A DNA stretch of 7,646 nucleotides, from positions 1-7,646 of IMG/VR virus record IMGVR_UViG_2778261463_000007; one strand, written 5' to 3'. Both the position numbers and the translations under genes were made by a program. The notes under the pieces are model-generated. The model was not told where the DNA came from and ran no database searches. It saw only the letters and a list, made by a program, of their open reading frames with translations. The DNA comes from a virus. Taxonomy: Duplodnaviria > Heunggongvirae > Uroviricota > Caudoviricetes. Every line of letters starts with the position of its first letter. Position 1 is the stretch's first letter. Positions 146 through 7,646 of this stretch are shown one piece after another.

Positions 146-221
146 TGGTGGCCCTTGCTGAATTTGAACCAGCGCCCTTGCGATTATGAGTCGCTCGCTC
201 TCACCACTGAGCTAAAGGGCC
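146..221 (-). tRNA. tRNA with anticodon CAT, tRNA-Ile2-like (lysidine type; anticodon-based tools would label it Met); resembles E. coli ileX and the ileZ of Stx-type phages
   Basis: Reverse complement gives GGCCCTTTAGCTCAGTGGTGAGAGCGAGCGACTCATAATCGCAAGGGCGCTGGTTCAAATTCAGCAAGGGCCACCA: 7-bp acceptor stem, D-arm GCTC/GAGC, anticodon loop CTCATAA, T-arm GCTGG-TTCAAAT-TCAGC, encoded CCA. The anticodon arm CGACTCATAATCG matches my recollection of E. coli ileX rather than elongator or initiator tRNA-Met. Confidence 0.8.
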
Positions 222-819: not shown

Positions 820-1926
820 ATGAAAAATTTAACAGTGGCACTTTCTGCTGTAGCAGCATCAGTATTTCTGGCAACGTCTTCAAATGCAGCAGAAATATAC
901 AATAAAGATGCAAACAAAGTGGATTTATACGGTAAAGCAGTTGGTTTACATTATTTTTCTTCTGATAAGGACCAAAACGGAGATCAGACTTACGCACGCC
1001 TTGGATTCAGAGGTGAAACCCAAATAAATAATTATATTACTGGTTTTGGTCAGTGGGAATATAATTTCCAGGGGAACAACCCTGAAGGGGATGGAGCTCA
1101 AACTGGAAACAAGACTCGCCTGGCATACGCTGGTCTGAAGCTTGCAGATGCTGGCTCTCTTGATTATGGTCGTAACTACGGCGTGGTGTACGACGCATTA
1201 AGCTACACTGACGTCTTCCCGGAGTTTGGACCTACCGCAGCGCAAAAGGATAACTTCTTCGTTGGTCGTGTAGGCGGTGTTGCCACATACCGCAACACTG
1301 ACTTTTTTGGACTGGTCGATGGGCTTAGCTTTGCAATTCAGTATCTGGGAAAAAATGAACGCAAGGATAAACCAGATACTTCAAACGGAGAGGGTGTAGG
1401 TGGCTCTGTCAGCTATGAATATGAAGGATTTGGTTTTGTCGCAGCATACGGCGCTGCTGATCGTACTAAAAATCAGAAAAAGGCTGAGCTTGGTAAAGGG
1501 AAAAAAGCTGAACAGTGGGCCACCGGGGTAAAATATGACGCAAATAATCTGTACCTGGCTGCCAGTTATGGTGAAACAAATAATACCCGTGCAATATCGT
1601 ATGGTGATAATATTTCAGGAGTGGCGAATAAAACCGAAGATTTCACTGTTGTGGCACAATACCAGTTCGACTTTGGATTACGCCCGTCTCTTGCTTATAC
1701 CCACTCTAAAGCAAAAAACCTTTCATCCAGTACTGATATTAGTAAAAAACATGATGACGGATATATTGAAAAATTCGTTGAAGTAGGGGCTTCTTATTAC
1801 TTCAACAAAAATATGTCTACATACATAGATTACAAAATCAATATGCTCGATAAAAATAAATTCACTGAAAGAACAGGAGTATCAACCGACGATATTGTCG
1901 CTGTTGGTCTGGTTTATCAGTTCTGA
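820..1926 (+). CDS. General porin of the OmpC/OmpF/NmpC family (prophage-borne, NmpC/Lc-like), 368 aa, with N-terminal signal peptide
   Basis: Signal peptide [23 protein letters not shown] followed by mature N-terminus [16 protein letters not shown] typical of enterobacterial porins; PEFG loop-3 motif; C-terminus [24 protein letters not shown]...[16 protein letters not shown] ending in Phe. Strong RBS. Gene is markedly more AT-rich than the flanking phage genes. Confidence 0.95.
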
Positions 1927-2544: not shown

Positions 2545-3540
2545 TCAGGCCAGCACACCAGTTGCCAGCGCACGATCGATAAAACGAAATATCAGCTCCA
2601 GCTGGGAGCCATACTTCACTTCAAATGCCACGGTATCCGCATGCAGCTCGTCGTGATGCTTTCTGCACAAAGGCAACACAAAGAGGTCATGCGCTTTTGT
2701 ACCCATTCCCCCCTGACCGTGACCTATCAGGTGGTGGGGATCATCAGCAGGCTTTCCACAACATGCACACGGCTGTGTCTTAACCCAGCGCGTGTACTTT
2801 TCATTAACCCAGCGGCGACGTTTTGGGCGTAACATAAAAGACTCCGGCGACTCCGGATCCACTTTCAGCGCCAGCACCTTTTTCGCTTTATCCTGGATAA
2901 TGCTGGTGGCAGGAACCGAAGGAACAAGGTCACTCTCCCGGGTGACAGACGGCACAACAGGATTCGGTAATCTCAGTGCCTTACGGGCTGCACTTTCCGG
3001 TAAGGTATCCGCCAGGTCATTACGAACCAGCCACCAGCACAGTTCCGGCATTGTCACAACATGACTATCATCAAAACCGAGATCCCGACGCACGACAGAC
3101 AACACCCAGCGAGCACAGTTATCCGTTGCCATTGATTCCAGCCGTTCCGTGAACTGATCGCACAGCTGGTTATCGCAGTGCCAGCACAGACGGATTGCAC
3201 CCGGAGCGTGTCGCATTGTGGTCATGTTCTCGCTGTGCCAGTCGGAATGAGGCCACTGGCAGCCTTTTTCACGAAGTAACCAGCTTTCAAGACATTCCAC
3301 TCCACCAGCACGACGGATTACTGCCTCATTGCGGAACACGGCCCGAACGGCAGGATCATCCGCCAGCGGTTGTGATGCCGCCGGAACGGCACCGCTGGCG
3401 AAAGATGAATAACGTTCCGGCTCAGGCTCCAGCAGGACACGCCCCTGCATAAACAGGGGCATCAGCTCTGAACCTGGCCTGAACAATACGATCCCCATAC
3501 GCGGGGCAATTTCAGGGGTCAGTAGTGCTCTCACGGTCAC
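2545..3540 (-). CDS. Cys/His-rich nin-region protein, likely DUF968 family (YdfU-like), with a C-terminal HNH-nuclease-like motif
   Basis: 331-aa ORF immediately upstream of Q. C-terminal segment [43 protein letters not shown] fits an HNH-type zinc-binding pattern; a second Cys/His cluster (CQWPHSDWH...CWHCDNQLC) lies in the middle. GTG start at 3540 or the in-frame GTG at 3534, with GAGG upstream. Confidence 0.85.
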
Positions 3541-3585: not shown

Positions 3586-3843
3586 TCACGCAGTAAACTC
3601 CTTCACCAGAGTTTCAAACTGGCTTACCTTGCCTTCCAGTTCCGCCACGCAATCCACCAGCTCATCCACCGCCTTTTGTGTGCGGTGTTTTGCCTGCAGC
3701 AGATCACGAAGCGCCGGAGTAAGCTGCTTGCGGAGCGTATCCTTTGCCACGCTCATTTTTTCCATCTGTTCAGCACAACGAAGCATCTCCTGCGCCTGGC
3801 GACGAAGTTGTTCCGGTGAAACAGTGGCTGTTCTGTTATTCAA
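3586..3843 (-). CDS. Hypothetical 85-aa protein, predicted helical/coiled-coil, unknown function
   Basis: ORF with TTG start overlapping the DnaB-like stop (TTGA overlap) and GGAG upstream. Sequence is heptad-like and rich in charged residues and Leu. I recognise no family. Confidence 0.6.
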   Translation of the reverse strand: MNNRTATVSPEQLRRQAQEMLRCAEQMEKMSVAKDTLRKQLTPALRDLLQAKHRTQKAVDELVDCVAELEGKVSQFETLVKEFTA

Positions 3844-5240
3844 AATAAACGCTCCGCTTTACTGCCCGACATGCGGTTATTGCTGTATCTGCGCGGATTG
3901 CCCGGCGTCATGGGTGTGGAAAGAACCTGAGCGCTTTCCTGATCCACAGGCAGAAAATGCCCGTTATGAAAACGCCGGTAAATGGTCCCGAGAGTGCCAT
4001 TACGCTGTTTCGTGATGTTGATTTCTGCTATGCCTCTGGCCTGTGTATCCGGGTTATACACCTCATCCCTGTAAAGCATCAGAATGATGTCGGCATCCGC
4101 CTCTATTTCCCCGGAATTTTTCAGATCCGAGTTCATGGGGCGTTTATTGGGTCTGGATTCCACACCACGGGAGAGCTGACTCAGTGCAATCAGCGGGAAA
4201 CCGCCGGATTTTGCCAGACTTTTAAGTCCCTTTGAGATTTCCCCCACAGCAAGGTCGTGACGCCCCGTGCTGCGGGTTTTAATCAGACCGAGGTAATCAA
4301 CCACCACCAGCGCCGTTTCCGGATGCTTCATCCGGTGGTACCTCGTGGTTGCACATATCTCATCAATGGTCAGATTTGCCTGGTCCACCATCCAGATATT
4401 ACGCCCCGTCATTCGTCCCACACCCTGTGAGAAACGTGCCCAGTCTTCGTCTTCAAAACGGGCAGCAGACTTAAGACGGGATACCGGCATTCCACCGGCA
4501 GAAGACACCATACGTTCACCAATCTGGATGTTCGCCATCTCCATGGTGAACAGAAGCACGCCATGCCCCTGCTCAGTCACCTTGTCGATGATGTCCAGCG
4601 CCAGTTCGGTTTTCCCCATCGAAGGACGAGCCGCAATGAATACCAGGTCGCCTGGCTCCATACCCCCTGTTTTTGCGTCCAGTTCATCAATACCGGTCAT
4701 CAGCGTTCTGGATTTCTCCAGTCCCTGATTCCGGCATTCAACACGGCCCACCACTTCCGGAAGGACATCATCAATGTGAACCGGCTGAATGACGCCCTTT
4801 CCGGTCGACAGTGAGGCCATCATGTTCTGCGCATCCTTCAGGGCATCCTCGGCTGCTTCGCAGGTATGTGCATCCCGTAAATTCTGTAATGCTTCGGTCA
4901 GTGTTTTTTCTGCATCGCGCAGTACGGCATTTCGCCGCAGCGCTGCAACATAGTGTTCCAGTGAAGACTTCACCCAGGTTTTGCGCCCGGTGTCGGTAAT
5001 CACCGGGGCAAGTTCCGGCATCTCATTGCACAGCAGCACGGGGTCAATGACGCCGGATACGCGGGCCTGTCTGCAAATCCCCGCGTAAATATCCCGGTAC
5101 TGACGCACGAAAAATACATCCGCCGGAAGCGTGGCCAGAATATCCATCACTTCCGGATCTGCCCCACGCAGAAAAAACGCGCCAATCACCGCACCTTCCA
5201 GGTCATCGTTACGCCATGCCGGGGTGTTCTGGCTGGTCAT
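3840..5240 (-). CDS. dnaB: DnaB-family replicative DNA helicase (phage-encoded, P22 gene 12-like)
   Basis: 466 aa; Walker A ARPSMGKTELALD, Walker B-like LVVVDYLGL, DnaB motif IALSQLSRGVESRPNKRP, DnaB-like N-terminal domain. ATG overlaps the stop of the upstream gene (ATGA) and is preceded by GGAGGTG. Confidence 0.95.
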   Translation of the reverse strand: MTSQNTPAWRNDDLEGAVIGAFFLRGADPEVMDILATLPADVFFVRQYRDIYAGICRQARVSGVIDPVLLCNEMPELAPVITDTGRKTWVKSSLEHYVAALRRNAVLRDAEKTLTEALQNLRDAHTCEAAEDALKDAQNMMASLSTGKGVIQPVHIDDVLPEVVGRVECRNQGLEKSRTLMTGIDELDAKTGGMEPGDLVFIAARPSMGKTELALDIIDKVTEQGHGVLLFTMEMANIQIGERMVSSAGGMPVSRLKSAARFEDEDWARFSQGVGRMTGRNIWMVDQANLTIDEICATTRYHRMKHPETALVVVDYLGLIKTRSTGRHDLAVGEISKGLKSLAKSGGFPLIALSQLSRGVESRPNKRPMNSDLKNSGEIEADADIILMLYRDEVYNPDTQARGIAEINITKQRNGTLGTIYRRFHNGHFLPVDQESAQVLSTPMTPGNPRRYSNNRMSGSKAERLF

Positions 5241-6124
5241 GCGGCAACACCTCCGATACGAGAACGGTAGCTGGGCCAGTTAAACGACAACCAGTTGCGC
5301 CCGCCATCGGTGATCCTGTCGGCAATCCGGGGACTGATGAACGCCCACAATTCTTCCGGTGAAAGGTTGCTGATCAAGATAGTTGGCAAAATACCCTCAT
5401 ACCGGGCATTGATAATTTCCTGCAAAATGGCCATTTCAGCCGCACTGCCAAACTGAACGCCGACTTCGTCGATGATCAGCAAATCCAGTGACGCATAATG
5501 CTCAATGACGTCATCCGCTGTTTTTTCACTGTCATTCCGCCAGCAGTTTTTCACAGCACGGGTAAGGCGCATCACGTCGGTGATCTCCACACTGGCCAGA
5601 TAGTTACGGATGATGTGTTTTGCCATTGATACCGCCAGATGATTTTTCCCGGTACCGCAACTGCCGGTCATAACAAGACTGGTACCGTTCTCCAGCATAT
5701 CTGGCCAGTTCTCCGCATAGCGGCGACAGGCCGCAAGATTTCTGGCTGCGTCAGGATTAACCTCCAGATAATTATCAAACTCGCAGTCCCGAAAACGCAG
5801 AGCAATTCCGGCGTTATCAGTCAGTTCTTCCGCCTTGAGGGACGACAGCTCCATGGTCAAATCGTTGGCCTCAGCTATCAAGCAGTCAGGGCAGCATGAA
5901 ATTTTTTCTCTATCCTCGCCATTACGATCGCTCCACACCAGAATATGTGTGTGGTATTCGCCATGTTTTTCGCAACACCCGCGCCCTTCACGCATCCAGC
6001 AGGATCGATAAGGCCATGGCTTTTCGCCATTCTGAGCAAATGCAATCTCTGCCCGTAACTCATCCATCCGCGCCTGTAGTCTTGTTTGTTGTTCACGCAG
6101 GTTAAGTGTCATCATCGCTGTCAC
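5237..6124 (-). CDS. dnaC: DnaC/IstB-like AAA+ helicase loader with an unusual N-terminal Cys-rich region
   Basis: Walker A GSCGTGKNHLA and Walker B LLIIDEVG in the C-terminal ~190 aa. The ORF track start at 6124 is GTG; a more likely start is the ATG at 6115 with GAGG 8 nt upstream. N-terminal ~90 aa contains CWMREGRGCCEKHGEYHTH...SCCPDC. Confidence 0.9.
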   Translation of the reverse strand: MTAMMTLNLREQQTRLQARMDELRAEIAFAQNGEKPWPYRSCWMREGRGCCEKHGEYHTHILVWSDRNGEDREKISCCPDCLIAEANDLTMELSSLKAEELTDNAGIALRFRDCEFDNYLEVNPDAARNLAACRRYAENWPDMLENGTSLVMTGSCGTGKNHLAVSMAKHIIRNYLASVEITDVMRLTRAVKNCWRNDSEKTADDVIEHYASLDLLIIDEVGVQFGSAAEMAILQEIINARYEGILPTILISNLSPEELWAFISPRIADRITDGGRNWLSFNWPSYRSRIGGVAA

Positions 6125-6125
6125 C

Positions 6126-7118
6126 TCAGAATGTCAATTTGTCACTGGATTTACCGAATTTGTCAGACATGGCTCCCAGGCCAGCCAGGACATCGACCTG
6201 TCGCTGTCGCCCACCTCCGGGAGCGGCTGGCTGTTGCCAGGATTCGTCAAAGTGCCGATCGGGGCCAAAGAACGTCGACGCCTGCTTCACGAACTGTGTG
6301 CCGGTATTTCCTGTAGCACGTACCCAGGCGGCATAACGTCTCACACCATCAAGCATGGTCTCCGGTTTTATTCCCTCCCTGAGACGGGCTTTCCAGGCTT
6401 TGAAGGCTGCTGACTTGGAATTGCCACCAGCACGTTTGGGATATTCCTGCCAGACCTGTTCAAATTCCGGTGAATATTCCTGTCGGGCGGAACGCGCTGG
6501 TGCAGACGCGTCAGCGGATGCGCCAATAGTGTTTTTAGTCTCCGTTGTAATCTCTGTAGTAATCTCTGTATTTGTATCAACATTCGGCGTATCCCCTGTT
6601 CCGTTATGACGTTGGGGGGTGTTCCGTTTTAACGTAATAGCTGTGTCGCTGATTGCGTTATTGCTGTTACTTTCTGGCGAAACAGAAGAAGGTGTGGTAA
6701 TGGCAGCAACTGCCTGTGGGTTGATCCCGACAAACAAAATATTGCTGCATTTCACACCATCGAGCATTTCTACGGTGCGTAAATCCAGAGTAATAAACCC
6801 TGCATCGCGAAGACGCTTCAGCGCATCTGCGGTTTCCCTTTTCCCGAAGCCAAATTGCTCAGCAAACGCCTGATAGCTTCTTTGCAGTTTGTCACCCTGA
6901 AAACGCTTGCGATATCCCAGCAAAGCCCCGGTATGCTCATCCCGGAGTTCTGTCGGGCGGTACCAGTAAACAATTTCTGAAAGCAAGGCGATAGCAGTCG
7001 CATCCGGACGACCACTGGGTAGCCGAATATGTTTCCACCAGTTCGCGGGGGTGACATTGCCGGAAATATTAATTTGACCAATAGCCATAACTTCCGGTGT
7101 AGGTGCGTAACGACTCAC
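6126..7118 (-). CDS. O: Replication initiator, lambda O-like (replisome organiser)
   Basis: 330 aa; N-terminal domain resembles initiator/replisome-organiser proteins of lambdoid phages; low-complexity linker with TEITTEITTE repeats; conserved-looking C-terminal domain. GTG start preceded by GGGAGGTG, overlapping the upstream stop. Position immediately before the helicase loader and helicase. Confidence 0.9.
   Translation of the reverse strand: MSRYAPTPEVMAIGQINISGNVTPANWWKHIRLPSGRPDATAIALLSEIVYWYRPTELRDEHTGALLGYRKRFQGDKLQRSYQAFAEQFGFGKRETADALKRLRDAGFITLDLRTVEMLDGVKCSNILFVGINPQAVAAITTPSSVSPESNSNNAISDTAITLKRNTPQRHNGTGDTPNVDTNTEITTEITTETKNTIGASADASAPARSARQEYSPEFEQVWQEYPKRAGGNSKSAAFKAWKARLREGIKPETMLDGVRRYAAWVRATGNTGTQFVKQASTFFGPDRHFDESWQQPAAPGGGRQRQVDVLAGLGAMSDKFGKSSDKLTF
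6541..6660. repeat. Direct repeats inside the O-like gene: candidate iteron-type replication origin
   Basis: Tandem GTAATCTCTGTA x2 at 6547-6570; TGTTCCGTTATGACG at 6597-6611 and TGTTCCGTTTTAACG at 6620-6634 (13/15 identical, 23 bp apart); further TTGCGTTA/TTGCTGTTA-like repeats to about 6680. Confidence 0.45.
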
Positions 7119-7339
7119 ACGGCACCTCCCAGGCGTTTAAACATTTTTCCGGACTGAAACACTGCCAGTGGATAACTCAGGGTATGAGTACGTCCCTGAA
7201 CCTGGCAGACAACCTTCTGGCTTTCTGTATTGACCAGGCAAACCCGCAGAACGTGGCCGTTGCTGGTGGTGAACCACTGCCCCACACGGGGGCAATGGTT
7301 GTATCGGTGATACCGGAAATTAACGATGTGGCGGATCAT
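7115..7339 (-). CDS. Hypothetical 74-aa protein with three Cys, immediately upstream of the O-like gene
   Basis: ATG preceded by strong GGAGGTG at correct spacing; stop overlaps the GTG start of the O-like gene. I recognise no family. Confidence 0.6.
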   Translation of the reverse strand: MIRHIVNFRYHRYNHCPRVGQWFTTSNGHVLRVCLVNTESQKVVCQVQGRTHTLSYPLAVFQSGKMFKRLGGAV

Positions 7340-7527
7340 GGACGCACCTCCGCCGTAGTTACGTATTTAACCGGGCTACCTTTCATTGAGATGGTTTCAC
7401 ACATCTCTGCCGCTTTCAGTTCTGCCGTTTTTCTGGATTTATAGCGACGGTGCCAGACAGATACATCCGTGCTAACTGATACATCGTTCTGAGAGATCCC
7501 CTCATAATTTCCCCAAAGCGTAACCAT
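7336..7527 (-). CDS. Hypothetical 63-aa protein (uncertain gene call)
   Basis: ORF whose stop overlaps the start of the 74-aa gene (ATGA), but no convincing Shine-Dalgarno precedes its ATG, and an alternative frame is open to the window edge. Confidence 0.35.
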   Translation of the reverse strand: MVTLWGNYEGISQNDVSVSTDVSVWHRRYKSRKTAELKAAEMCETISMKGSPVKYVTTAEVRP

Positions 7528-7646
7528 GTGTGAATAAATTTTGAGCTAGTAGGGTTGCAGCCACGAGTAAGTCTTCCCTTGTTATTGTGTAGCCAGAATG
7601 CCGCAAAACTTCCATGCCTAAGCGAACTGTTGAGAGTACGTTTCGA

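Follow-up and report, generated by a model that had tools for sequence, protein, structure and literature searches.

The initiator gene and the repeats in its linker

The window analyzed in this work, namely the whole stretch of 7,646 nucleotides, carries an initiator gene on its minus strand, directly followed by genes for a DnaC-like helicase loader and a DnaB-family replicative helicase (Table 1). The initiator matches the PHROG family phrog_270, 'replication initiation protein', over its full length (7.6e-79, residues 2-329), and its C-terminal part also matches phrog_1701, 'DnaD-like helicase loader'; the RefSeq labels are 'hypothetical protein' or 'replication protein'. No family was assigned by Pfam (E<=0.01) or NCBIfam, the sole Pfam match at E<=1 being a weak one to HTH_36 (residues 81-109, E 0.052), and a sequence search of the PDB with the initiator returned nothing. 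This initiator type is found in ~9% of complete E. coli genomes (480/5426, with the full gene in 220), and relatives occur in Stx-converting phages and in phages of Acinetobacter, Staphylococcus, Bacillus and others.

The N-terminal domain, which has 23 invariant columns across homologs of 41-70% identity, models confidently as a winged helix in AlphaFold2 (pLDDT 89.2, pTM 0.83). Its best Foldseek matches in the PDB (TFE/TFIIE, MarR/ArsR, CodY and the DnaD N-domain 2v79) are all winged-helix proteins with E>1e-3, that is, generic winged helices and no close structural relative. The match to 2v79 (E=0.074) stands among those to many other winged helices, and Pfam DnaD_N does not match the window protein but does match a type C relative (3.6e-5). 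The C-terminal domain probably recruits the helicase loader and the helicase, and an alternative C-terminal tail is present where the DnaC and DnaB genes are absent downstream.

Table 1. Coordinates of the genes, domains and repeat units in the window
Feature	Position	Strand	Description
Initiator gene	6126..7118	-	330 aa, GTG start; N-terminal winged helix, candidate-origin linker, C-terminal DnaD-like/partner-recruiting domain
N-terminal domain	6699..7118	-	residues 1 to ~140; predicted iteron-binding winged helix-turn-helix
C-terminal domain	6126..6527	-	residues ~198-330; common to two other N-domain types in E. coli prophages
Iteron unit 0 (degenerate)	6636..6658	-	coding strand ACGCAATCAGCGACACAGCTATT; in register, 23 nt upstream of unit 1
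Iteron unit 1	6613..6635	-	ACGTTAAAACGGAACACCCCCCA; core TTACGTT-AA-AACGGAA, imperfect palindrome
Iteron unit 2	6590..6612	-	ACGTCATAACGGAACAGGGGATA; 23-nt shift puts it in another reading frame
Iteron unit 3 (degenerate)	6567..6589	-	CGCCGAATGTTGATACAAATACA; abuts the 12-mers; in register at 23 nt
12-mer array	6534..6572	-	AAT ACAGAGATTACT ACAGAGATTACA ACGGAGACTAAA; conserved element ATACARAGAnTACTACARAGAnTAC
DnaC-like helicase loader gene	5237..6124	-	directly downstream; Pfam IstB_IS21 2.9e-14; phrog_50 'DnaC-like helicase loader' 1.2e-88
DnaB-family replicative helicase gene	3840..5240	-	Pfam DnaB_C 2.7e-74 and DnaB N-domain; RefSeq 'replicative DNA helicase'

Two kinds of repeats lie within codons ~155-195 of the initiator gene, which encode ...AITLKRNTPQRHNGTGDTPNVDTNTEITTEITTETKNT.... 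Read on the plus strand, two 16-nt copies, TGTTCCGTTATGACGT at 6597-6612 and TGTTCCGTTTTAACGT at 6620-6635, are identical at 14/16 positions with a start-to-start spacing of 23 nt, and the corresponding degenerate pattern matches the window twice against 0.01 expected from 200 dinucleotide-preserving shuffles. The second is a 12-bp period at 6539-6570, reported by Tandem Repeats Finder with 2.7 copies, 90% matches and a score of 50. Both had been noticed in the initial annotation, which placed them in the linker, where an origin is expected from lambda, and the present results agree with it in each of these respects, the linker being the segment that joins the DNA-binding N-domain to the C-domain. 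It had, however, called both of them iteron-like, which holds for the 16-nt copies, whereas the 12-bp tandem repeat is a conserved motif of its own in the position of the AT-rich region of lambda. The whole element is now placed at 6534-6658 (125 bp), essentially all of which is covered by the earlier coordinates of 6541-6680.

Alignment to relatives resolved four units of 23 nt each, of which units 1 and 2 are the strong copies and units 0 and 3 are degenerate. Unit 1 aligns to the TACGTTGAAACGKAAC units and unit 3 to ACGTTGAAACGTGAGACGTATACA of relatives, and unit 0 aligns, as a weak assignment, with the unit that opens the arrays of Serratia and Yersinia; only 2 of the 4 units match the Yersinia/Serratia palindromic consensus well, the 12-mer-proximal unit being degenerate. 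The 12-mer is polymorphic in copy number, different alleles having between 1 and 4 full copies. Of all 40-mers in the gene, that at 6545-6584 is the least stable (-44.5 kcal/mol, which is 2.9 sd below the gene mean of -56.2, sd 4.0), and the GC content at 6520-6579 is 0.37. The DnaA box TTWTNCACA occurs in the window only at 748, 5547 and 7529 and not within 6126-7118, and no IHF consensus was found in the initiator gene. Scans of 6100-7646 detected no promoter-like site and a single terminator-like site, at 6802-6816, which is outside the element and is no more than expected by chance. No second iteron or 12-mer match was found in the 19-kb early region of the prophage.

Constraint on the linker DNA and its conservation among relatives

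The two strong copies are translated differently, as TLKRNT and QRHNGT, owing to their different reading frames. With a 23-nt period and copies in different frames, therefore, neither selection on the peptide nor simple in-frame duplication explains the repeats. Among 50 distinct E. coli alleles, only 1 of the 38 third-codon positions of residues 160-197 (6528-6641) is polymorphic, against 155/292 elsewhere in the gene (Fisher 1.9e-10) and 64/140 in the N-domain alone (8e-8), and unit 1 has no third-position polymorphism at all, although recombination spreading one version of the segment among prophages could partly inflate this zero synonymous diversity. These alleles came from a viral-contig scan with the single sequence, which retrieved only relatives of 96-100% identity and was used for allele diversity and not for deep comparison. 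In five relatives the linker DNA, with 73-78% identity, is more conserved than that of the folded domain (58-70%); its alignment has 55 invariant columns, and the match of the segment to the genes of Serratia, Yersinia, Xenorhabdus and an Acinetobacter phage holds column by column.

The same constraint is visible in codon usage at the 12-mers. At sites chosen by the peptide T-E-x-T alone, as choosing by DNA match would be circular, Thr is encoded by ACA in 82/89 cases (39% elsewhere) and Glu by GAG in 79/89 (43% elsewhere), and T is the last base of the x codon in 79/89. Amino-acid-changing positions vary (E/K, I/T/N, Q/R) while the third-codon positions are frozen. In terms of these alignments and codon comparisons, the repeats are shown to be constrained as DNA and not as protein repeats. 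The frame shift between copies, the frozen synonymous sites and the column-by-column alignment thereby answer the check proposed in the initial annotation, namely whether it is the DNA or the protein that is conserved in the repeats, in favor of the DNA.

Distant relatives were obtained through a profile scan of genomes and comprise 81 loci, namely 80 genome loci (L094-L173, N-domain 40-69% identical) and the Acinetobacter phage L011, with hosts in the Enterobacterales, Acinetobacter, Thiotrichales, Rickettsiales, Chloroflexota, Cyanobacteria and many Firmicutes. In 51 of these loci, which are distinct and bear the element, the stretch of 130 nt that precedes the 12-mers matches itself only at shifts of 22/23 and 44/45 nt, and control segments in the N- and C-domains of these loci have no such periodicity. 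The iterons of relatives comprise 3-5 units, which are short palindromes of lineage-specific sequence (for example, the core TTACGTT-GA-AACGTAA). Directly following the last iteron is the 12-mer element, nearly invariant and with frozen synonymous positions. Within every 3.4-kb locus the 25-mer conserved element (Table 1) gives the best match, which is without exception on the coding strand, follows the N-domain at 100-300 nt and, in nearly all loci, keeps the same reading frame; it scores >=19/23 in 52/81 distant type-A loci, against a background of 13-17, and is conserved in frame in these and in 59/60 type-B linkers. In every relative, the array is inside the initiator gene itself and adjoins an easily melted segment.

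The GC content of the 12-mer segment in the 51 loci is 0.31 +/- 0.04 regardless of gene GC. In low-GC hosts the 12-mer is not unusually AT-rich, so that easy melting cannot fully account for its conservation. The 12-mer occurs with three N-domain types or clusters and at least nine C-domain types or clusters, and in named phages including Staphylococcus X2, Bacillus BtCS33, Pseudomonas AF, Burkholderia BcepIL02 and Stx phages. The N-domain types share a '(S/Q)Q(I/L)xYW' helix, and types A and B are related (hhalign E=4e-5), while the type C initiators, with the same C-domain, lack the 12-mer and have their own repeats, GAACCAGTCAAW. Comparison across these loci shows that the same two-part architecture tracks homologous N-domains across phyla, with iterons changing by lineage and the 12-mer remaining constant.

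In E. coli, three N-domain types share one C-domain, each with its own iterons at the same place. The mosaic joints map to query positions 403-405 and 444 (window ~6530 and ~6569), and those between N-domain types fall exactly at the 12-mers (~6569) or just past them (~6530). By this sequence comparison, the iterons travel with the N-domain, that is, as a lambda-type module of a DNA-binding domain and its cognate origin. A covariation test of iteron sequence against N-domain identity was dropped, because shared ancestry alone gives the same correlation.

A candidate replication origin and its alternatives

Based on these findings, we propose that the 6534-6658 element is probably, as judged from sequence comparison, the replication origin of an E. 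coli lambdoid prophage, located within the linker-coding part of its own initiator gene. Three attributes of a lambda-type origin are present: direct repeats with internal dyad symmetry at approximately two-turn spacing; an easily melted A+T-rich segment that transcription reaches right after the last iteron; and a position in the linker that joins a DNA-binding N-domain, with which the iterons travel, to a C-domain that recruits partners. By analogy with lambda O/ori-lambda and SPP1 G38P/oriL, from which binding, unwinding, helicase loading and origin activity are inferred, dimers of the winged-helix N-domain would bind the iterons, which are imperfect palindromes (two of them strong, the other two degenerate) and which the 23-bp spacing of about two helical turns would place on one face of the DNA. 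The nucleoprotein complex would then destabilize the adjoining A-rich 12-mer array (TACAGAGAnTAC, 2.7 copies), the least stable DNA of the gene and the candidate DNA-unwinding or helicase-entry segment, and the C-terminal domain would bring the phage's own DnaC-like loader and DnaB-like helicase onto the opened strands. Since no relationship of the initiator to lambda O or G38P is detectable in sequence, this mechanism rests on architectural analogy.

Among the alternatives, the element could be functional DNA other than an origin, either an operator for autoregulation of the initiator or a homology patch for recombination of initiator modules. 'Linker sequences' are a classical idea for lambdoid mosaicism, and the coincidence of the mosaic joints with the 12-mers or the position just after them, together with the association of one 12-mer with so many N- and C-domain clusters, would fit a recombination patch. 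However, such a patch leaves unexplained why lineage-specific palindromic repeats with two-turn spacing lie beside a DNA-binding domain, and why the 12-mer is conserved across Firmicutes, Proteobacteria, Chloroflexota and Cyanobacteria, among which phage exchange is infrequent; recombination at the 12-mer may be a consequence and not a cause of its conservation, and for an operator the region offers no promoter-like site to regulate. We therefore regard the non-origin function as unlikely. Even less probable is that another part of the prophage holds the true origin, the arrays being secondary initiator-binding sites like SPP1 oriR that pause forks or titrate the initiator: SPP1 G38P does have two binding regions (PMC3485210), and the prophage DNA examined spans only 19 kb, but this region holds no other iteron or 12-mer match, and the array of every relative occupies the position of the primary origin in lambda and SPP1, in the initiator gene beside an easily melted segment. 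The least probable reading is that the repeats are a functionless by-product of a low-complexity, slippage-prone linker (TEITTEITTE), for although the segment encodes a Thr/Glu-rich, probably disordered linker and the 12-mer copy number varies among alleles as slippage predicts, a period of 22/23 nt, not being divisible by three, places copies in different frames, third-codon positions are frozen while amino-acid-changing ones vary, and the linker DNA is better conserved than that of the folded domain.

The tandem 12-mer TACAGAGAnTAC might further be more than an AT-rich spacer, namely a sequence-specific origin-core element of a large superfamily of phage winged-helix initiators, a tentative proposal that we hold at slightly less than even chances. 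Its frozen synonymous sites, its abutment on the last iteron, the free divergence of the iterons and its absence from type C initiators would point to recognition by either a conserved surface of the N-domain oligomer or a universal component of the host replisome. Possibly, the N-domain oligomer recognizes the 12-mer as single-stranded DNA; recognition of single-stranded DNA has been reported for lambda O and plasmid Rep proteins.

The candidate origin provides a concrete 125-bp target for replication assays, for prophage-derived replicons and for the interpretation of mosaic joints. The 25-mer together with the 22/23-nt periodicity, which found the initiator gene in 80/80 contigs examined, could serve as a simple and specific signature for automatic origin annotation. 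If unwinding or helicase entry proved to depend on the specific sequence of the 12-mer, an origin-core motif would be seen to be conserved between bacterial phyla, of which few cases are known, and the old question of how O-type initiators open iteron-adjacent DNA would become testable.

Comparison with known origins

In the searchable literature on the phrog_270 family, no mapped origin and no mention of iterons or the 12-mer was found, although an earlier description is possible; the 15-/18-mer versions of the motif occur in open-access papers only in one unrelated primer, and the paper on the Eru replication units of Stx phages does not discuss iterons or origins. Ori-lambda consists of four 18-bp iterons and a 38-bp AT-rich stretch inside O (PMC3349717), and two iterons with the AT-rich region are enough for unwinding (PMC7466680). 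In lambda J02459, we found at 39034-39118 four direct repeats with 20-24-bp spacing and internal dyad symmetry. The repeat organization, which the initial annotation had taken to differ from that of lambda, is therefore closer than claimed, with four units at a 23-bp period in the window. Lambda, and also the Stx phages 933W and P27, have their origin, like the candidate one of the window, midway through the initiator gene, where a linker joins the DNA-binding N-domain to the C-domain that recruits partners; lambda further shares four repeats that give way, as transcription proceeds, to an A-rich and easily melted stretch, and iterons that travel with the N-domain as a specificity module. However, the lambda iterons TCCCTCAAAACGAGGGA are unrelated to ACGTT..AACGG of the window, and the melted segment is an AT-rich tract in lambda but a tandem 12-mer of conserved sequence here. 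The replication partners are P and host DnaB in lambda but a phage DnaC-like loader and a phage DnaB-like helicase here, and the AT-rich-proximal iterons matter in lambda, whereas the 12-mer-proximal unit of the window is degenerate. The AT-rich stretch of lambda (ACAAAAGACACTATTACAAAAGA...) loosely resembles the Rickettsiales form of the 12-mer (ACAAAGACTACTACAAAGA) and may be a degenerate copy of it, the likeness being a resemblance only. As for the protein, the initiator was rejected as a member of Phage_rep_O (PF04492), with no Pfam match and an hhalign probability of 0.1% for its family profile against lambda O, and its PHROG matches to 'O-like' families are weak (phrog_391, 1.3e-6; phrog_678, 1.2e-4). 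Thus, the earlier label 'O-like' is appropriate for the architecture but not for the protein family.

The oriL of SPP1, with AB boxes and an AT-rich DUE, is likewise embedded in gene 38 (PMC5737612). As in the window, the iterons precede the melting segment within the initiator gene, and a loader (G39P) and a DnaB-type helicase (G40P) of its own are encoded directly downstream; the SPP1 boxes (GAAACGACAC...) give way in the sequence to short A-rich repeats in tandem (AACAATGATAAC...), both differing in sequence from those of the window. A G38P-type replisome organizer was rejected for the window protein (BLASTP E=1.5), which lacks the Phg_2220_C domain present in G38P (2e-20); one contig with the TACAGAGA 12-mer carries a G38P-like C-domain.

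The iteron plasmid origins (RK2 oriV/TrfA, pPS10 and F) also combine a winged-helix initiator and ~22-bp iterons with an adjoining DUE of tandem 13-mers, and in RK2 one strand of the DUE is bound sequence-specifically by the Rep protein, which by analogy is a possible model for the sequence conservation of the 12-mer. However, the candidate origin of the window lies inside a coding sequence and its initiator is not a RepA/TrfA homolog, and a plasmid-type iteron origin was rejected, as no DnaA box lies in or beside the element. Among the 'DnaD-like' phage initiators, ORF20 of staphylococcal 80-alpha has been proposed to carry its own origin (PMC5499656). It is already a current idea that the gene of such a replisome organizer harbors the origin.

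The initiator gene and its surroundings

The chromosome of E. coli LH50-c contains a lambdoid prophage with 100% identity to the window. The early-right operon of the window lies on the minus strand and ends with the Q antiterminator gene. The 330-aa protein, for which no family was found in Pfam or NCBIfam, is a full-length member of the PHROG family phrog_270 'replication initiation protein' (7.6e-79), and its C-terminal third matches the PHROGs 'DnaD-like helicase loader' and 'replication protein'; because of its position and family, it is the phage initiator. The AlphaFold2 model of its N-domain is confident (pLDDT 89, pTM 0.83) and comprises a helix, a beta-hairpin insertion and a winged helix-turn-helix, with the winged-helix domains of TFE/TFIIE, MarR/ArsR, CodY and DnaD-N as the top PDB matches, none of them close.

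Features of the window, operon genes in operon order
Feature	Position	Strand	Remark
Small ORF	7336-7527	-	First in operon
Small ORF	7115-7339	-	Second in operon
330-aa initiator gene	6126-7118	-	phrog_270 match
Candidate origin	6534-6658		In linker-coding part of initiator gene
Iteron units 0, 1, 2, 3	6636-6658, 6613-6635, 6590-6612, 6567-6589		
12-mer array	6534-6572		
DnaC-like loader gene	5237-6124	-	After initiator gene
DnaB-family helicase gene	3840-5240	-	After DnaC-like loader gene
Small ORF		-	After helicase gene
DUF968/HNH protein gene	2545-3540	-	Pfam DUF968, 4e-80
Q antiterminator gene		-	Operon end
Porin gene	820-1926	+	Beyond operon; Pfam Porin_1, 1.8e-125
Two tRNA genes	68-144, 146-221	-	Beyond operon

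The slot between the helicase gene and Q usually holds Nin-region genes, and here contains the DUF968 protein with its HNH-like C-terminus. The porin ORF is intact (368 aa) and lies between Q and the lysis genes, where the DNA is very rich in AT (about 500-2100). In RefSeq the LH50-c copy of this gene is listed as a pseudogene, interrupted by an internal stop that is absent from the window sequence. The phage-borne tRNA genes encode tRNA-Lys(ttt) and a CAT-anticodon tRNA, assigned to Met by ARAGORN and to Ile by RefSeq.

Repeats and constraint in the linker-coding segment

The initial annotation had described a 12-bp tandem repeat and two copies of a motif 23 nt apart, and both are present: the former at 6539-6570 in 2.7 copies, the latter as the 16-nt repeat TGTTCCGTT(A/T)T(G/A)ACGT starting at 6597 and 6620, a degenerate pattern that matches 2 times where chance would give 0.01. 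The coding strand of the segment reads ...ATT ACGTTAAAACGGAAC ACCCCCCA ACGTCATAACGGAAC AGGGGATACGCCGAATGTTGATACA AAT ACAGAGATTACT ACAGAGATTACA ACGGAGACTAAA... and encodes the linker peptide AITLKRNTPQRHNGTGDTPNVDTNTEITTEITTETKNT. The count of two motif copies has to be corrected, as alignment with enterobacterial arrays gives four units repeating every 23 nt, of which 1 and 2 are strong and 0 and 3 degenerate. The least stable 40-mer of the initiator gene is 6545-6584 (-44.5 kcal/mol vs a mean of -56.2, sd 4.0), and all less stable 40-mers of the whole window lie within the AT-rich porin block. No DnaA box, IHF consensus or promoter-like site was found in the initiator gene, nor any further iteron or 12-mer site within 19 kb of prophage.

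Three independent lines of evidence argue that these are DNA repeats and not protein repeats. First, the 23-nt offset places the copies in different reading frames (TLKRNT vs QRHNGT). Second, among 50 distinct full-length initiator-gene alleles from E. coli prophages, third-codon-position diversity is 0.04-0.20 in the N-domain, 0.2-0.35 in the C-domain and 0.000 at about 6632-6543; polymorphic third positions number 1/38 in residues 160-197 vs 155/292 elsewhere (Fisher 1.9e-10) or 64/140 in the N-domain alone (8e-8), and the few changes within the segment are amino-acid-altering (Q/R, H/R, P/L). Third, an alignment of the origin segment with its counterparts in five relatives (Serratia, Yersinia, Rosenbergiella, Xenorhabdus and an Acinetobacter phage) matches column by column and has 55 invariant columns; this 'linker' DNA is 73-78% identical to theirs, whereas identity drops to 58-70% in the DNA of the folded N-domain. 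In the E. coli alleles L014-L093, the 12-mer varies in number from 1 to 4 full copies plus a partial one, each copy being invariant in sequence.

Codon choice in the distant loci described below points the same way. At T-E-x-T sites picked by peptide alone, ACA encodes the first Thr in 82/89 (39% in the rest of these genes), GAG encodes Glu in 79/89 (43% in the rest), and T is the last base of the third codon in 79/89. Where the 12-mer varies, it does so at the first or second base of a codon (E/K, I/T/N); this is the opposite of what protein-level selection produces.

Conserved architecture and exchangeable modules

An N-domain profile search of a collection with one genome per species yielded 80 distant loci (40-69% identity), whose hosts include Enterobacterales, Acinetobacter, Thiotrichales, Rickettsiales, Chloroflexota, Cyanobacteria, Atribacterota and many Firmicutes, and in all of them the DNA downstream of the N-domain has the same two-part structure. 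The first part consists of 3-5 short palindromic units in an array; averaged over 51 loci, the 130 nt preceding the 12-mers match themselves only when shifted by 22/23 and 44/45 nt, and equal-length control segments from the N- and C-domain coding regions show no such signal. The unit itself is lineage-specific, being TTACGTTnnAACGTAA in Enterobacterales, CCCCAGTTAAAA in Acinetobacter populi, TTCCYTnAAAGGAAA in a Thiotrichales genome and TTCCCCACAGGGAAC in a Rickettsiaceae genome. The second part, immediately adjoining the last unit, is the nearly invariant [A/T]ATACARAGAnTACTACARAGAnTAC. With both strands searched, this element is the top 25-mer match of each 3.4-kb locus. It never falls on the non-coding strand, it keeps to a single reading frame in nearly all loci, and it scores at least 19/23 in 52/81 loci against a background of 13-17. 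In Morganella morganii (L098, about 1878-1980) and a Finniella MAG (L145) the initiator gene is broken within the origin segment, in one of them by a stop that follows the first iteron and in the other by a frameshift; these are probably decaying prophages or assembly errors.

An exact 25-mer scan of IMG/VR matched at least 119 contigs. Of these, 80 were examined, and all 80 carry the element in frame within an ORF that measures 129-396 codons from stop to stop, in most cases 220-396; ORFs at the short end have little sequence upstream of it. Repeats precede the element in these ORFs, with the best self-match at 22-24 nt or 42-47 nt. Their N-terminal parts form three BLAST clusters, namely type A, which includes the window protein, type B and a third with 'LQQVHYWL', and their C-terminal parts at least nine, one resembling SPP1 G38P. 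The type A and type B N-domains are remote homologs (hhalign E=4.3e-5, probability 69%), and the element occurs in 59/60 distinct type B linkers, an unbiased sample picked by protein similarity (54-100%). BLAST also placed it inside the initiator genes of the following cultured phages: Staphylococcus X2 and IME1318_01, Bacillus BtCS33, phiCM3, BceA1 and phIS3501, Geobacillus PT9.1, Pseudomonas AF, Burkholderia BcepIL02, several Acinetobacter and Klebsiella phages and Stx phages. The GC content of the segment is 0.31 +/- 0.04 regardless of that of the gene (0.30-0.63); therefore, it is an AT-rich island in GC-rich hosts and not in AT-rich ones.

In E. coli, the window C-domain, from ...TIGASADAS on, recurs at >90% DNA identity in initiators with unrelated N-domains: type B, found in Stx1/Stx2 phages and annotated as 'replication protein O', and type C, with an HTH_36/DnaD_N-like N-domain. 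Homology to type B ends at 6569, within the 12-mers common to both, and homology to type C about 6530, just past them. Every type carries its own repeats behind its N-domain, and therefore the DNA-binding domain and its repeats are exchanged together as a single module, just as lambdoid O genes do. In type B the repeats are lambda-like TCCC..GGGA palindromes, while type C (L007 1201-2025, L010 1099-1917) has 4-5 copies of the iteron TTCACCAGGNGGTAGTGCA followed by 3 copies of its own 12-bp tandem repeat GAACCAGTCAAW, so that the rule of iterons followed by a 12-mer tandem repeat holds even with a different sequence. The TACAGAGA 12-mer goes with the superfamily of type A, type B and third-cluster N-domains, and not with the C-domain.

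The last ~35 residues differ (...EVPAVSAVRREDPYFKASYDNVDYSQIPAGFRG) in type-A initiators of other E. coli prophages (window 6126-6236 vs L004 502-1497 and L005 499-1467), which are followed by PerC/yfdN and N6-adenine methyltransferase genes in place of the DnaC-like/DnaB-like genes. The C-terminal tail probably sets the choice between phage and host helicase-loading proteins.

The candidate origin and known phage origins

Both the constraint at the DNA level and the conserved architecture, established by sequence comparison, support the proposal of an origin inside this initiator gene. We consider 6534-6658 likely to be the prophage replication origin, and it has all the properties of a lambda-type origin that can be seen in sequence. 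By analogy, N-domain dimers would bind the palindromic iterons on one helix face, the iteron-bound complex would melt the neighbouring 12-mers, and the C-domain could then recruit the phage DnaC-like/DnaB-like pair. The iteron reading of the repeats fits the 23-nt-spaced copies, whereas the 12-mers are not iterons and correspond to the AT-rich region.

The principle that an initiator gene can contain the origin is textbook knowledge. In ori-lambda, a 38-bp AT-rich stretch is joined to four 18-bp iterons within gene O (PMC3349717), two iterons and the AT-rich region are enough for unwinding, and lambda O binds the AT-rich DNA in single-stranded form (PMC7466680). SPP1 oriL, within gene 38, consists of an AB-box array and a DUE (PMC5737612), and staphylococcal 80-alpha ORF20 has been proposed to be organised in this way too (PMC5499656). 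What appears to be new is the placement of the origin for a widespread, unannotated initiator family, and the finding that the element on the presumed unwinding side is a specific tandem 12-mer whose nucleotide sequence is conserved across phyla and initiator types; no description of this motif was found in the searchable literature.

In SPP1 gene 38 (L175 279-1049), the AB boxes GAAACGACAC / GAAAAAGACAC of the experimentally defined oriL are followed by the short A-rich tandem repeats AACAATGATAAC AATGAAAAC AATGATAAC, a layout the same as that of the window, although the sequences are unrelated. The lambda AT-rich origin segment (39118-39160; L295 519-560) is GACACAAAAGACACTATTACAAAAGAAAAAAGAAAAGATTATT, encoding DTKDTITKEKRKDY, and bears a loose likeness to the ACAAAGAnTACT form of the 12-mer and to the T-[EK]-x-T-T peptide of the family; its stretch ACAAAAGACACTATTACAAAAGA loosely resembles the K-form ACAAAGACTACTACAAAGA, a lead and not a result, and the segment may be a degenerate relative of the 12-mer. 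The label 'O-like' fits the gene in its architecture but not in family membership: the window system would work like ori-lambda/O and oriL/G38P, while its protein lies by sequence outside both the lambda O and the G38P families.
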